Virus genome (UHGV): UHGV-0187105
DNA length: 24,417 nucleotides
Reading direction: 5' to 3' (one strand)
Source: a virus
Shown here: positions 11,216 through 14,535 of the stretch, one piece after another
Layout: every line of letters begins with the position of its first letter
How positions within the stretch are numbered: the first letter of the stretch is position 1
Notes under the pieces: generated by a model
Database searches by the model: none
Told to the model about the DNA's origin: nothing
What the model saw: the letters and a program-made list of their open reading frames with translations, nothing else
Program-made: the position numbers and the translations under genes

Positions 11216-11896
11216 ATGAAGGGCTTCTGTAATGCCTTACTTCATGAAATTATTTCATCCGGGTTTACGCAGAAAACTTTTCACTTTATGTGCATTATGA
11301 AAATGCCAATTGCGGCATATCTCTGGGAAACTGAAATGATCCATACCGTACACTTCATGACAGATGTGACAGTTGCTTCTGTATCCAGCCTTATGGATGT
11401 TTGCCTCAAAGCGATATCAAGCCCTAACCAACCAGCCTCTGAGATCAGGATTTACATCTCTAGTAAAGGTGGAGATACCGTTGCAGGTTTTACCGCATAC
11501 AACTTTCTTAAGTCTCTTCCTGTAAAGGTGAAGACACATAACCTTAGTAACGTGGAATCTATAGCAAATGTTATTTTCATGGCTGGATCTGAGCGGTTTG
11601 CTAATCCTCTCTCGCGATTTTTATTACATCCTTTACATTGGGGATTTGCCGCCCCACAAGCAGATCACCTCAGGCTTAGGGAATGGGCGGCATGTCTGGA
11701 TGACGACTTGCAAAGATTTGTGCAGGTGATGAATATCGAGGCTCTCGCTGTAGCCCCAGATGAGCAAATTGACTGGGCTAATTTGATCACTTCTGCAACC
11801 ATCATTGATCCGGGAAGGGCCACCGAGTTGGGTATGATCCAGAATGTCGAGGCTGCAACCATACCCACAGATTCGATCAGGTGGTGGGTTCTGTAA
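11216..11896 (+). CDS. ClpP-fold serine protease-like protein (stand-alone moron gene)
   Basis: Core region IRIYISSKGGDTVAGFTAYNFLKSLPVKVKTHNLSNVESIANVIFMAGSERFANPLSRFLLHP aligns by eye to E. coli ClpP [66 protein letters not shown], with Ser and His at the catalytic positions. Opposite strand to all flanking genes; visibly more AT-rich than neighbours (not computed); own downstream terminator. True start uncertain: the 11216 ATG sits in a hairpin loop and an in-frame ATG at 11336 has GGGAAA upstream. Confidence 0.6.
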   Translation: MKGFCNALLHEIISSGFTQKTFHFMCIMKMPIAAYLWETEMIHTVHFMTDVTVASVSSLMDVCLKAISSPNQPASEIRIYISSKGGDTVAGFTAYNFLKSLPVKVKTHNLSNVESIANVIFMAGSERFANPLSRFLLHPLHWGFAAPQADHLRLREWAACLDDDLQRFVQVMNIEALAVAPDEQIDWANLITSATIIDPGRATELGMIQNVEAATIPTDSIRWWVL

Positions 11897-12458: not shown

Positions 12459-12918
12459 TTACTACCCCACCAGCTTTTTTAAATCGGGCAATCAGGTCAC
12501 CGATTTTATGTTCATACTGACCGTAACCTGCACCAGGTAACGACGCCCAGATATTGCTGCAACGATCGATAGCCTGACGGATATCACCGCGATCAATCAT
12601 CGGTAAAGCGCCACGCTCTTTAATCTGCTGCAATGCCACAGCGTCCTGGCTTTTGGGGGAGAAGTCATTCAAACCAAGCTGTTTACGGTAAGCATCCCAC
12701 CAACGGGAAAGAAGCTGGTAACGTCCGGCTGCTGTTGATTTGAGTTTTGGGTTTAGCGTGACAAGTTTGCGAGGATGATCGGAGTAATCAGCGAATAGTT
12801 CGCCACCGACAATAACGTCATAACCGTGGTTACGTGTCGGTTGTCGCCCGTTATCCGTTCCTTCTGACCAGGCCACCATATCAAGGAAAGCTTTACGCTG
12901 AGGATTTAGTACCTGCAT
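12442..12918 (-). CDS. R: Endolysin, lambda R-type lytic transglycosylase
   Basis: 158 aa, near-identical over most of its length to my recollection of phage lambda R (…QRKAFLDM.AWSEGTDNGRQ.TRNHGYDVIVGGELF.DYSDHPRKLVTLNPKLKST.AGRYQLLSRWWDAYRKQLGL.DFSPKSQDAVALQQIKERGALPMIDRGDIRQAIDRCSNIWASLPGAGYGQ…). Confidence 0.9.
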   Translation of the reverse strand: MQVLNPQRKAFLDMVAWSEGTDNGRQPTRNHGYDVIVGGELFADYSDHPRKLVTLNPKLKSTAAGRYQLLSRWWDAYRKQLGLNDFSPKSQDAVALQQIKERGALPMIDRGDIRQAIDRCSNIWASLPGAGYGQYEHKIGDLIARFKKAGGVVNEAEI

Positions 12919-12921
12919 AAA

Positions 12922-13344
12922 TTACTCCTTCGAGCTACCAAATTTGTTACCGATTACTCGCATTGCAGCCCCACGAATAGCATCGACACCGATCAGCCCA
13001 ACGCCGCCACCAATGGCAACAGAAAGCGATTTGGGCCATCCGACATACTCAAGAGCGGATGCAAAAGTCAGCGTCAGAGCACCACAGAGCAAAATCTCGA
13101 GCGTTTTTCGCTTCCAGCCCCCTCCCCCGCCAAAATAGGCAATGCGCAAGCCAGCCATAACGATCGACATAATCACTGCACCCAGCGGTGTGTCTCCACG
13201 CCACCAGCTCTGTAACAGTTCAAGTAAATCAGGCCAGGAATGAGGATCGTTGTGCATTTCATAATTCCCACCTCCGATTACCGGAAGTGCCACAAGTAAA
13301 AGGGAAAGAAGCTGGTTATAACGCTGATTTGCAGAAGTGCGCAT
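12922..13344 (-). CDS. Putative holin (multi-pass membrane protein)
   Basis: Hydrophobic multi-TM protein immediately upstream of the endolysin with a 4-nt gap. The ATG at 13344 has no SD because a terminator hairpin abuts it; an in-frame ATG at 13257 has GGAGGTGGG about 9 nt upstream and would give a 111 aa product. Confidence 0.55.
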   Translation of the reverse strand: MRTSANQRYNQLLSLLLVALPVIGGGNYEMHNDPHSWPDLLELLQSWWRGDTPLGAVIMSIVMAGLRIAYFGGGGGWKRKTLEILLCGALTLTFASALEYVGWPKSLSVAIGGGVGLIGVDAIRGAAMRVIGNKFGSSKE

Positions 13345-13368
13345 AAAAAAGGCCGCCCGTAGGCGGCC
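13345..13368 (-). terminator. Intrinsic terminator directly upstream of the holin gene (tR'-like)
   Basis: Perfect hairpin ggccgcc-tacg-ggcggcc followed by TTTTTT on the minus strand, between the 67 aa ORF stop and the holin ATG; position matches lambda tR', which Q-modified RNA polymerase reads through. Confidence 0.6.
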
Positions 13369-13386
13369 TCAAAAATCTTATTTTCA

Positions 13387-13590
13387 TCATCGCGAAGGAT
13401 GGAGGGTTTTATGACGAGGTTTAATGTAAACCTCATAGGAATGAGACAGCTTGTCTACTTCTCTAATTGGTAATTCCCAACCAGTATTCAGCAGAATACT
13501 TTTCTGAGTAGCAGACACTAACACTGAGCCAATCTCAATATTATTTGCAATTGCCACGACCTTCTTGGTCGTGTGTTTACTATTTTGCAT
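13387..13590 (-). CDS. Hypothetical 67 aa protein in the Q-to-holin interval
   Basis: ATG at 13590 preceded by GGAGAT-cacc; lies in a visibly AT-rich stretch between a candidate promoter and the tR'-like terminator. No family recognised. Confidence 0.5.
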   Translation of the reverse strand: MQNSKHTTKKVVAIANNIEIGSVLVSATQKSILLNTGWELPIREVDKLSHSYEVYIKPRHKTLHPSR

Positions 13591-13591
13591 G

Positions 13592-13634
13592 GTGATCTCC
13601 TTTCAACCAGCATCACAAATGTGATGGAGATCAC
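13592..13634 (-). promoter_or_regulatory. Nested inverted repeat in the 5' leader of the 67 aa gene
   Basis: Outer perfect 9-bp inverted repeat gtgatctcc (13592-13600) / ggagatcac (13626-13634) enclosing an inner palindrome CATCAC-aaat-GTGATG (13611-13626); sits between the candidate promoter and the RBS. Confidence 0.4.
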
Positions 13635-13661
13635 AATATCACTTGTTCAAAAAACATGCAA
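13633..13661 (-). promoter_or_regulatory. Candidate sigma70 promoter (pR'-like late promoter or moron promoter)
   Basis: Minus strand TTGCAT - 17 nt - TATTGT, about 120 nt downstream of the Q stop codon. Confidence 0.4.
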
Positions 13662-13782
13662 CATAAAACCCACCTGAGCGGGTTTATAAAAGTTAGACAT
13701 TCAATGCCCATCTTTACGTTAAGGCTAACCATATTTTTTGAAAATTGCAAGCATTGTGCGGAGAAAATCATTAAAAATGTAG

Positions 13783-14535
13783 CTATCGTGTCACTTTTTG
13801 CAACTGTAACTCTGCGAATGCTTCTTCCTGCCAGCACTTTGTTACCAGTTTATCAATGACGTCTGCATATCCTTTGTACCACTGATAATCCGTCAGGTCT
13901 GGTACCAGCTTCTGGACATGATGCCGCGCCAGTGTGGTTGGTAAACGGCTAAACCGGTTTCCATTGCAACGCCCACAAATCTTATAAACAGGCGTGCCAT
14001 GAAGCCGGGTCCTTTTTTCATCCAGGACAATACCTTTACCCTTACACCCTCTGCACGCTGTGCTGACTTCTCCCTTACCATGACAATGCTGACACAGTTC
14101 CTTCACCCACTCTTCCTTGATAACAGATTCCCCGCTTCTGGAGTGTTTTACCACCTCGCGCAATACATCATGAAATCCAGTACCAGCACAATGCTCACAG
14201 CGAGCCTTACTTGCCGCAGACCTGGAATAATCAGCAAAGGCAAAATTCACAAGGTAAGGGATGATCTGTAACCGGATTTCTTCACTCAATTTGTTCAATG
14301 TCGGGTTATTCAGTGCCATCGCGTAATTGAGCAGACCTTCAATCGCAAACTGAGGGTCCTGAACGCCAACTTTTGCCAGGAATAAGGCAAACCCAAGCGG
14401 TGCTTTCGACTGCACCATCCCCTGCGCAGCCATTACATCCGTAATTGTTAAACCACCCGAGCCTGTCGCCGGTGCGTCATCGCTCAGTTTTGGAGATTTC
14501 GGGGAGTAATATTTCGGTAAGGCTTCAAGGTTCAT
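13783..14535 (-). CDS. Late-gene antiterminator Q (QuuQ-type, zinc-finger repeats)
   Basis: 250 aa with four CxxC-type motifs (CEHCAGTG, CQHCHGKG, CRGCKGKG, CGRCNG), immediately upstream of the promoter/terminator/lysis-cassette arrangement. I recall the family as the 250 aa Qin-prophage QuuQ type. Confidence 0.7.
   Translation of the reverse strand: MNLEALPKYYSPKSPKLSDDAPATGSGGLTITDVMAAQGMVQSKAPLGFALFLAKVGVQDPQFAIEGLLNYAMALNNPTLNKLSEEIRLQIIPYLVNFAFADYSRSAASKARCEHCAGTGFHDVLREVVKHSRSGESVIKEEWVKELCQHCHGKGEVSTACRGCKGKGIVLDEKRTRLHGTPVYKICGRCNGNRFSRLPTTLARHHVQKLVPDLTDYQWYKGYADVIDKLVTKCWQEEAFAELQLQKVTR

Follow-up and report, generated by a model that had tools for sequence, protein, structure and literature searches.

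The late genes of phage λ are controlled by a unit that comprises the antiterminator Q, the promoter pR', a sigma-dependent pause, the 6S RNA and the terminator tR'; the pause element has the sequence AACGAT and the terminated late-leader transcript is 194 nt long. The pause element is −10-like and is located at the start of the pR' transcript, with GGG at positions +7 to +9 (PMC5001585). Morons are defined as genes that are absent from related phages, deviate in G+C content, come with a promoter and a terminator of their own, and are expressed from the repressed prophage, to the benefit of the host (PMC3594210). Here we describe a 67-amino acid (aa) open reading frame (ORF, nucleotides 13387 to 13590) located between the Q and holin genes, the Q-S interval, of the virus genome UHGV-0187105, a λ-like E. 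coli prophage. The whole 24,417-nt stretch that was analysed is referred to as the window; all coordinates are those of the window, and all features of the cassette that includes the 67-aa gene, as well as those of the late unit, are on its minus strand. Our analysis suggests that this cassette is probably a moron that has its own promoter and lies between the two tandem late terminators of the Q-S hotspot. Elements of this type are commonplace, the slot being the best-known hotspot for morons; the probable regulation of this one is of interest. A first-pass annotation of the same DNA had listed a candidate promoter, a nested inverted repeat, the 67-aa ORF with its ribosome binding site and a strong terminator, and all four are present at the places given.

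The insertion can be followed by comparing empty and filled sites. The empty site L054 consists of pR', a first late terminator that we name tR'a, 9 nt, a second terminator named tR'b, and the holin leader. The contig L025 shares both flanks of L054 and has the promoter and the ORF inserted between its two terminators; the same insertion is found in L024, which clearly shares the downstream flank. Since tR'a and tR'b stand in tandem at the empty site and flank the cassette at the filled sites, the cassette has lodged between tandem terminators. The similarity between the window and the Citrobacter prophages ends just past tR'b. The prophage Qin, strain 94EC and the phages SfV and mEp460 share Q, pR' and tR'a with the window and then diverge, so that the cassette, like the insertions in L024 and L025, is extra DNA at a conserved position in the gene order. 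The G+C content of the cassette is 39.8% and that of the ORF 39.7%, as compared to 48.3% for Q, 52.7% for the holin gene and 51.9% for the whole window. The unit ends at a terminator, tR'b, and has a candidate promoter with the weak-consensus structure TTG...-17-TAnnnT, kept in the 12 cassettes that were aligned. The earlier reading of the locus as a moron thus holds with respect to the extra DNA, a plausible promoter of its own, the terminator and the deviant G+C content, while the part that equated its promoter with the late pR' does not. Like HK97 gene 15 and λ bor and lom (PMC3594210), the cassette is extra DNA of deviant G+C content with its own putative promoter and a terminator, and includes a small gene that would be expected to be expressed from the repressed prophage. 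It differs from them in its cargo protein, which has no known relatives, in its location between two resident late terminators, one of which it uses, and in the CRP-type site of its candidate promoter.

Judged from its conservation, the 67-aa ORF is shown to be a real, conserved protein-coding gene. Its ATG is preceded at 6 nt by the ribosome binding sequence GGAG (nucleotides 13600-13597). The product, annotated in RefSeq as the hypothetical protein WP_001181554.1, matches phrog_25981, a family of unknown function, from end to end (E = 4e-51). Exhaustive protein searches covered 5.8 billion and 1.8 billion proteins, the first returning only 11 clusters at 90% identity and the second 5 representatives, and a scan of viral contigs with a DNA pattern from the leader, mostly noise, added two more members, one complete and one a truncated copy equal to P0007 over its length. 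The family thus has about 13 versions of 61 to 70 aa, which are 36-78% identical and share the motifs G.V, L.TGW.[IL]P[IV], H.YEV, P[RH]H[KN] and HPS.W. When the Q-S interval was compared across relatives the reading frame was intact in 13 of 13 homologues, and the ORF was absent from otherwise homologous sites. The pairwise ratio of nonsynonymous to synonymous change (dN/dS) ranged from 0.28 to 0.85; distant pairs have reached saturation at their synonymous sites. No match was found when the GenBank phages and plasmids were searched by tblastn with the 67-aa protein, or when one genome per species was scanned with an alignment of five sequences; all of its known members come from prophages and metagenomes. 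Among 5,426 complete E. coli genomes 32 carry the cassette, and in all 32 the gene is annotated as coding for a hypothetical protein. Two E. coli alleles were translated and both are intact. The common allele differs from that in the window at seven positions, the sole change within the ORF being synonymous. The window has a minority form, as seen at positions 13672, 13627, 13611, 13642-13643 and 13717 when compared with L034 and L035, and another allele, ECCHD184, carries the substitution R59C in the protein.

The protein is predicted to be small, basic, cytoplasmic and all-beta, with no detectable relatives. An AlphaFold2 model built from 12 sequences shows five strands with a mean pLDDT of 80.7 and a weak C-terminus; the net charge, counted manually from the sequence, is about +5, and there is no hydrophobic segment. 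The earlier statement that the protein has no recognised family is borne out by sequence searches of Pfam, NCBIfam, PADLOC and PDB, which gave no match, phrog_25981 being the only family found; structure searches with the model gave no useful match. A cold-shock or OB fold, an idea taken from the presence of cspB and cspF in the equivalent slot of Qin, was discarded as neither such motifs nor such a match were found. The 64-aa orf47-like gene in the slot of SfV and 94EC is unrelated in sequence and is not a homologue, and a second 68-aa ORF located upstream in L025 is likewise unrelated and not a paralogue. The ORF includes two perfect hairpins, CACGACC-AAGAA-GGTCGTG in codons 6-12 (nucleotides 13555-13573), listed by the terminator scan as a terminator-like site on the plus strand, and GAGGTTTA-CAT-TAAACCTC in codons 53-59 (nucleotides 13416-13434). 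Both are partly retained in Citrobacter and may be coincidental.

The late unit of the window starts immediately after Q. This gene (nucleotides 13783 to 14535) codes for a 250-aa antiterminator of the ydfT or Qin type that matches Pfam PF03589 (E = 9e-53), the Q-lambda family (PMC9388147). It is 97.6% identical to the Q proteins of SfV, mEp460 and several Stx2c phages, and its RefSeq name, ydfT, is that of the Qin prophage gene. The DNA following Q was aligned with that of Qin from K-12 and that of strain 94EC, both of which carry different downstream genes. The three share a block that consists of TTGCA(A/T), 17 nt and TA(G/A)nnT, then, 7 nt after the −10, AA(C/A)GATGGGC, and about 30 nt farther on a GC hairpin followed by a T-tract; directly past this hairpin the similarity ends. 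The block is also present in SfV and mEp460. In the window it corresponds to a putative pR' at nucleotides 13722 to 13750 (−35 TTGCAA at 13750-13745, a 17-nt spacer and −10 TAGCCT at 13727-13722), of a kind conserved after every Q of this type, to a candidate sigma-dependent pause element, AAAGATGGGC, at the predicted positions +1 to +10 (nucleotides 13706 to 13715), which reads AACGATGGGC in relatives, and to tR'a, AAACCCGC-TCAG-GTGGGTTT followed by TTATG (nucleotides 13662 to 13685). The terminator is predicted from its fold and keeps its position in all relatives, and the SfV record annotates a rho-independent terminator there. The three elements are kept in Qin, SfV, mEp460, strain 94EC and the Citrobacter prophages regardless of the genes downstream, and we infer that they form the real late unit, upstream of the cassette promoter. 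The tR'a stem of the window has one G·U pair, while in most E. coli copies and in Citrobacter it is perfect (13672 T to C). As a result of this minority pair, read-through into the 67-aa gene may be leakier in the window allele.

This unit resembles that of λ in the Pfam family of its Q, PF03589, and in its order: the promoter adjoins Q, a −10-like element with GGG opens the transcript, and an intrinsic terminator follows. As in λ the transcript between pR' and the terminator would be non-coding, with a length of about 52 nt as opposed to the 194 nt of λ. The window also differs in the presence of a second terminator downstream and in that the cassette promoter and gene stand outside the late unit. 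In the other homologues the gene also lies between Q and the holin gene, although the contig L025 ends before any holin, and the Q proteins belong to three unrelated families, PF03589, PF06323 (the Q82 family) and PF06530 (the Q21 family). The window and Citrobacter both have a PF03589 Q and a λ-type holin, with a DNA methyltransferase gene added after the 67-aa gene homologue in Citrobacter; L013 and L014 have a PF06323 Q, and L016, L017 and L021 a PF06530 Q together with holin_8 or holin_3_7, while L025 also has a PF06530 Q. The sequence following the phage 82-type Q of L013 includes TGATAGTGTGCC, which fits the published description of the phage 82 pause element as a good −10-like sequence, an extended −10 and a GCC discriminator. 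The cassette therefore appears to sit behind the cognate late unit of each type of Q.

The candidate promoter of the cassette encompasses nucleotides 13633 to 13661, with a −35 TTGCAT (13661-13656), a 17-nt spacer that includes the TG of an extended −10 at 13641-13640, and a −10 TATTGT (13638-13633). Its −35 begins one base past the T-tract of tR'a. The leaders of 12 diverged cassettes, whose proteins are 36-78% identical, were aligned using the ATG as anchor, and a 13th leader was read by eye. Among the 12, the invariant bases are T and G in the −35 TTG and T, A and T in the −10 TAnnnT; the spacer is constant in length, at 17 nt, and freely variable in sequence. The 13th leader is arranged in the same way, its spacer being 16 or 17 nt long. 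The cassettes of L016, L026 and L027 retain the promoter, and in L016 about 700 nt and an antisense gene stand between it and tR'a. The 67-aa gene apparently has a plausible promoter of its own, a candidate of the sigma-70 type, which is supported by its conservation and not by the match to the consensus.

The inverted repeat next to this promoter includes a perfect CRP-consensus core, TGTGA-TCTCCA-TCACA (nucleotides 13620 to 13635), that the first-pass annotation had missed. It is the sole perfect match within the window, and the 22-mer at 13638-13617 agrees with the ICAP consensus AAATGTGATCTAGATCACATTT for CRP (PMC2504297) at 18 of 22 positions. Twelve of the 13 cassettes keep at least 9 of the 10 core bases at a fixed 6-nt spacing, and about two unrelated CRP-type sites of this quality (at least 9/10) are found in 81 kb of prophage DNA. 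The G at the fifth position of the −10 and the GA that follows the hexamer are conserved although the promoter needs neither, which points to constraint on the half-site itself. The core overlaps the −10, and its centre is 37 nt ahead of the ATG and at about −1.5 from the predicted start. A position suited for activation, about −41.5 or −61.5, was not found, as there is no usable start at least 41.5 nt downstream of the site. The geometry therefore fits only repression by occlusion; CRP as an activator was rejected, since class I or class II geometry would require a site farther from the ATG. Repression by cAMP-CRP from a site that overlaps the core promoter is found at cyaA P2 and spf, among others. 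The candidate site resembles these in that a near-consensus TGTGA-N6-TCACA lies across the −10 and the start, a place at which CRP, once bound, would keep the polymerase off, and differs in that its right half doubles as an arm of a conserved hairpin. We infer that the cassette promoter may be controlled by CRP. An antisense promoter activated by CRP was also considered and rejected, as inspection of the alignment by eye shows that the bases at the appropriate distance on the opposite strand, the reverse complement of the −35, have no likeness to a −10.

The hairpin, CATCAC-ATTT-GTGATG (nucleotides 13611 to 13626), is located at the predicted 5' end of the cassette mRNA, and in it the TCACA half of the CRP-type site pairs with a downstream GTGA(T/C). 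In the 12 sequences 95.8% of the cells are paired, a value matched by none of 500 shuffles, and controls in which the arms were slid gave 12-62%. An A-U pair has changed to G-C twice, independently, in unrelated members, G·U pairs occur often, and loop lengths range from 3 to 10 nt. With its wobble pairs and uneven spacing the element looks more like an RNA hairpin than like a rigid protein site. Since the stem opens at a purine 8 nt past the −10, the mRNA would start with a stem-loop. Stem-loops at the 5' terminus stabilise E. coli mRNAs by protecting them from 5'-end-dependent decay, and the cassette hairpin may have such a role. An outer inverted repeat, ATTGTGATCTCC / GGAGATCACCAT (nucleotides 13589 to 13637; −17 kcal/mol, z = −2.55), has 12-nt arms at 13637-13626 and 13600-13589 that are 92% complementary and cover the GGAG and part of the ATG. 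These sequences would be sequestered solely in transcripts begun upstream of the cassette promoter. The outer stem is not conserved in Citrobacter or in the other cassettes; as it is specific to the E. coli lineage we give it little weight, and the idea of a conserved riboswitch-like element that sequesters the ribosome binding site was dropped.

The second terminator, tR'b, consists of GAGGCCGCC-TACG-GGCGGCCTT followed by TTTTAT (nucleotides 13343 to 13370). Its predicted fold has a 9-bp GC stem and a run of six T residues and is located 17 nt past the stop codon. The description of this terminator as strong is supported by a folding energy of −20.5 kcal/mol (z = −4.5, none of 200 shuffles being as stable), while its placement against the holin start has to be revised. 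The holin gene (nucleotides 12922 to 13257) codes for a 111-aa protein of the λ family and starts at 13257 according to RefSeq and to the Pfam Phage_holin_3_1 match, which begins at residue 31 of the 140-aa frame. This start is 86 nt past 13344, the ATG of the longest frame, which is the only one that tR'b adjoins. The description of this hairpin as tR'-like is defensible, as it is the resident second terminator found about 10 nt after tR'a in relatives free of cargo. A terminator of the type GGC(T/C)GCC-N4-GGCGGCC-T4-6 is present after all 13 homologues; its fourth base is T in the other 12, while the window copy reads GGCCGCC. The T form, GGCTGCC-N4-GGCGGCC-TTTT, was found in at least 120 IMG/VR viral contigs, none of them with a member of the 67-aa family, and several of these contigs have it immediately ahead of a holin leader, with a tR'a-type hairpin about 10 nt in front of it. 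Many enterobacterial phages among the sequences compared have a late leader that closes with two predicted tandem terminators, between which cargo can lodge. The T form is a stereotyped, portable terminator: enterobacterial phages have it at many different junctions between modules, and it is frequently the downstream member of a tandem pair that precedes the holin gene. A recurrent element of about 50 nt, ggttctgtggtctagcgcagggtcaccgggaggcacccggcaccacaa, is found directly before it in L046, L053, L055, L080 (two copies), L119, L151 and L152; this element looks like a small structured RNA gene in the cargo slot. A tRNA search found none in the Q-to-holin interval, and Rfam over nucleotides 12800-14300 gave two sub-threshold matches to leader peptides on the terminator, which were taken as chance.

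The slot holds other cargo in phages with a nearly identical Q. That the Q-to-holin hotspot carries Shiga toxin genes, as had been pointed out, is confirmed by phiSTEC1575-Stx2k, whose Q is 96.8% identical and whose slot includes tRNAs and stx2k. In SfV (Q 97.6% identical) the slot includes orf47 and a DNA methyltransferase gene, and in Qin, whose Q is alike by its ydfT annotation only, cspB and cspF. Like the 67-aa gene, all of these lie past pR' and tR' and ahead of the holin gene; the genes differ, the cargo of the window being a single 67-aa ORF. In the Citrobacter and metagenome prophages (L004-L012, L019, nucleotides 4416-5468) a 70-aa homologue stands directly before an N6/N4 DNA methyltransferase gene, and in SfV (L028, nucleotides 2503-3750) and 94EC an unrelated 64-aa orf47-type gene holds its place before the same methyltransferase gene. 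This swap suggests that the position itself is an exchange point. In the Q21-type prophages an antisense gene is located between Q and the cassette (L016, 2785-3264; L021, 2505-3296; L025, 2117-2416), which codes for a 159-aa protein of unknown type, a methyltransferase-like protein of 263 aa or a DUF6650 protein. The sequence resembling the late promoter seems to follow the antisense gene, and not to adjoin Q, in L021 and L025.

The first-pass annotation had considered that TTGCAT-17-TATTGT might be the constitutive late promoter and had placed the gene in the equivalent of the λ pR'-tR' interval, in which case the cassette promoter would be the pR' on which Q acts and the hairpin at 13370-13343 the single tR'. 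The promoter-like hexamers and the terminator do exist, and the latter is the last one before the holin gene. However, pR' (13750-13722), the pause element (13715-13706) and tR'a (13685-13662) all stand upstream of the cassette: a conserved promoter with a λ-like pause and a terminator, one that SfV annotates, follows Q directly. Moreover, the cassette promoter travels with the 67-aa gene beside three families of Q with different loading sites and is therefore not the cognate Q-loading promoter of each, and after it a CRP-type palindrome is found instead of a −10-like pause element. We consider this arrangement very improbable. A stronger competitor, unlikely in our judgement, is that the cassette lacks a promoter and the 67-aa gene is simply the first late gene, reached only by Q-modified polymerase coming from pR' or by leakage through tR'a, with the conserved upstream bases acting as a protein-binding site or as an RNA element of the late leader. 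The hexamers are weak (7 of 12 positions) and were not called by the promoter scan, the TGT of the −10 falls within the CRP-like half-site, which offers another cause for its conservation, the position directly before the lysis genes is strictly kept, and tR'a of the window is weakened by the G·U pair and an interrupted T-tract. Against this, the CRP core includes neither the TTG of the −35 nor the T and A of the −10, and these bases are conserved at a fixed 17 nt over an unconserved spacer, the cassette of L016 retains the hexamers despite the antisense gene that separates it from tR'a, and a strong terminator after a single small gene is what would be expected of an independent transcription unit.

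The TGTGA/TCACA copies (13635-13631, 13624-13620 and 13617-13613) could also be neither a CRP site nor a hairpin but operators for a phage protein, possibly the 67-aa protein acting as an autorepressor. The half-sites are conserved in sequence and not merely in complementarity, the protein is basic with a net charge of about +5, and small phage regulators often adjoin their own operators. We give this proposal little credence: the first pair is an exact match to the E. coli CRP consensus in sequence and in its 6-nt spacing, the 3-10 nt between the second and third copies and their G·U pairs fit RNA better than a rigid dimer site, and the predicted all-beta model has no recognisable DNA-binding fold. 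Finally, the ORF could be spurious and the region a structured non-coding RNA, given the several hairpins in and around it and the weak leader-like Rfam matches over the terminator. The intact frame, the motifs conserved down to 36% identity and the dN/dS values, with synonymous change saturated, indicate instead a protein-coding gene, and the ribosome binding sequence is kept at the right distance; the Rfam scores, 25 and 19 bits, are far under the gathering scores of 55 and 41 and concern a generic terminator. The probability of this alternative is in our view close to nil.

Several observations weigh against the reading of the cassette as a moron with its own CRP-gated promoter. The promoter, its start site, CRP binding and the function of the hairpin are all derived from sequence comparison, and the promoter hexamers match the consensus at 7 of 12 positions, such that a generic promoter scan misses them. 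The CRP-type site shares bases with the −10 in its left half, and its right half serves as the 5' arm of the hairpin; one of these constraints could thus mimic another. The covariation in the hairpin is modest, with two pairs showing double changes in a nearly invariant sequence. As tR'b also stands at empty sites, the unit can be said to end at a terminator more than to own it. None of the family, defence or structure searches matched the protein, and its strict position next to the lysis genes could indicate a function in late expression or lysis rather than in the lysogen.

The gene order on the minus strand of the window is a DUF968 gene, Q, the 67-aa ORF, the holin gene, a lysozyme gene and Rz/Rz1. 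A region identical to this one is found in E. coli YZ3E2001, where it is annotated as a complete prophage with an integrase, a repressor region, Q, the lysis genes, the terminase, HK97-type head genes and a tail sheath. Downstream of the Rz genes, the plus strand of the window has a 226-aa ORF (nucleotides 11216-11896).

If the cassette is a moron with its own promoter, its expression can be pictured as follows. In the lysogen the constitutive pR' transcripts would stop at tR'a, and the cassette would rely on its own promoter, its transcript beginning with the purine at which the hairpin opens. The short, hairpin-capped mRNA would end at tR'b, so that the lysis genes stay silent. Binding of cAMP-CRP at about −1.5 would occlude the promoter, which would be on at low cAMP, when sugar is plentiful, and off under carbon limitation. 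After induction, Q-modified polymerase would read through both terminators and the 67-aa gene would become the first late gene, co-transcribed with the others. As to the protein, we guess that a host or phage macromolecule is its binding partner and that the lysogen gains from the binding, for example through the exclusion of other phages or the tuning of late expression or lysis. A more specific proposal, that the strict placement, beside three unrelated families of Q and several types of holin, is functional and does not just reflect a site that tolerates insertion, and that the protein is a CRP-gated lysogen factor acting on late transcription or lysis, is doubtful at present. If true, the protein may be a safety brake on leaky late or lysis expression, or may exclude superinfecting lambdoid phages by way of Q-modified polymerase or the holin, and the cassette would be a new single-gene control or defence module.

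The late-control map of this phage is corrected by these results, with pR', the pause element and the first terminator at 13750-13662, the second terminator at 13370-13343 and the holin gene from 13257. They also delimit a family of proteins of 61-70 aa, rare and conserved, in which no fold could be recognised and whose regulatory signals are unusually well conserved. If control by CRP holds, the cassette would clearly exemplify how an accessory gene of a prophage can be coupled to the carbon status of the host.

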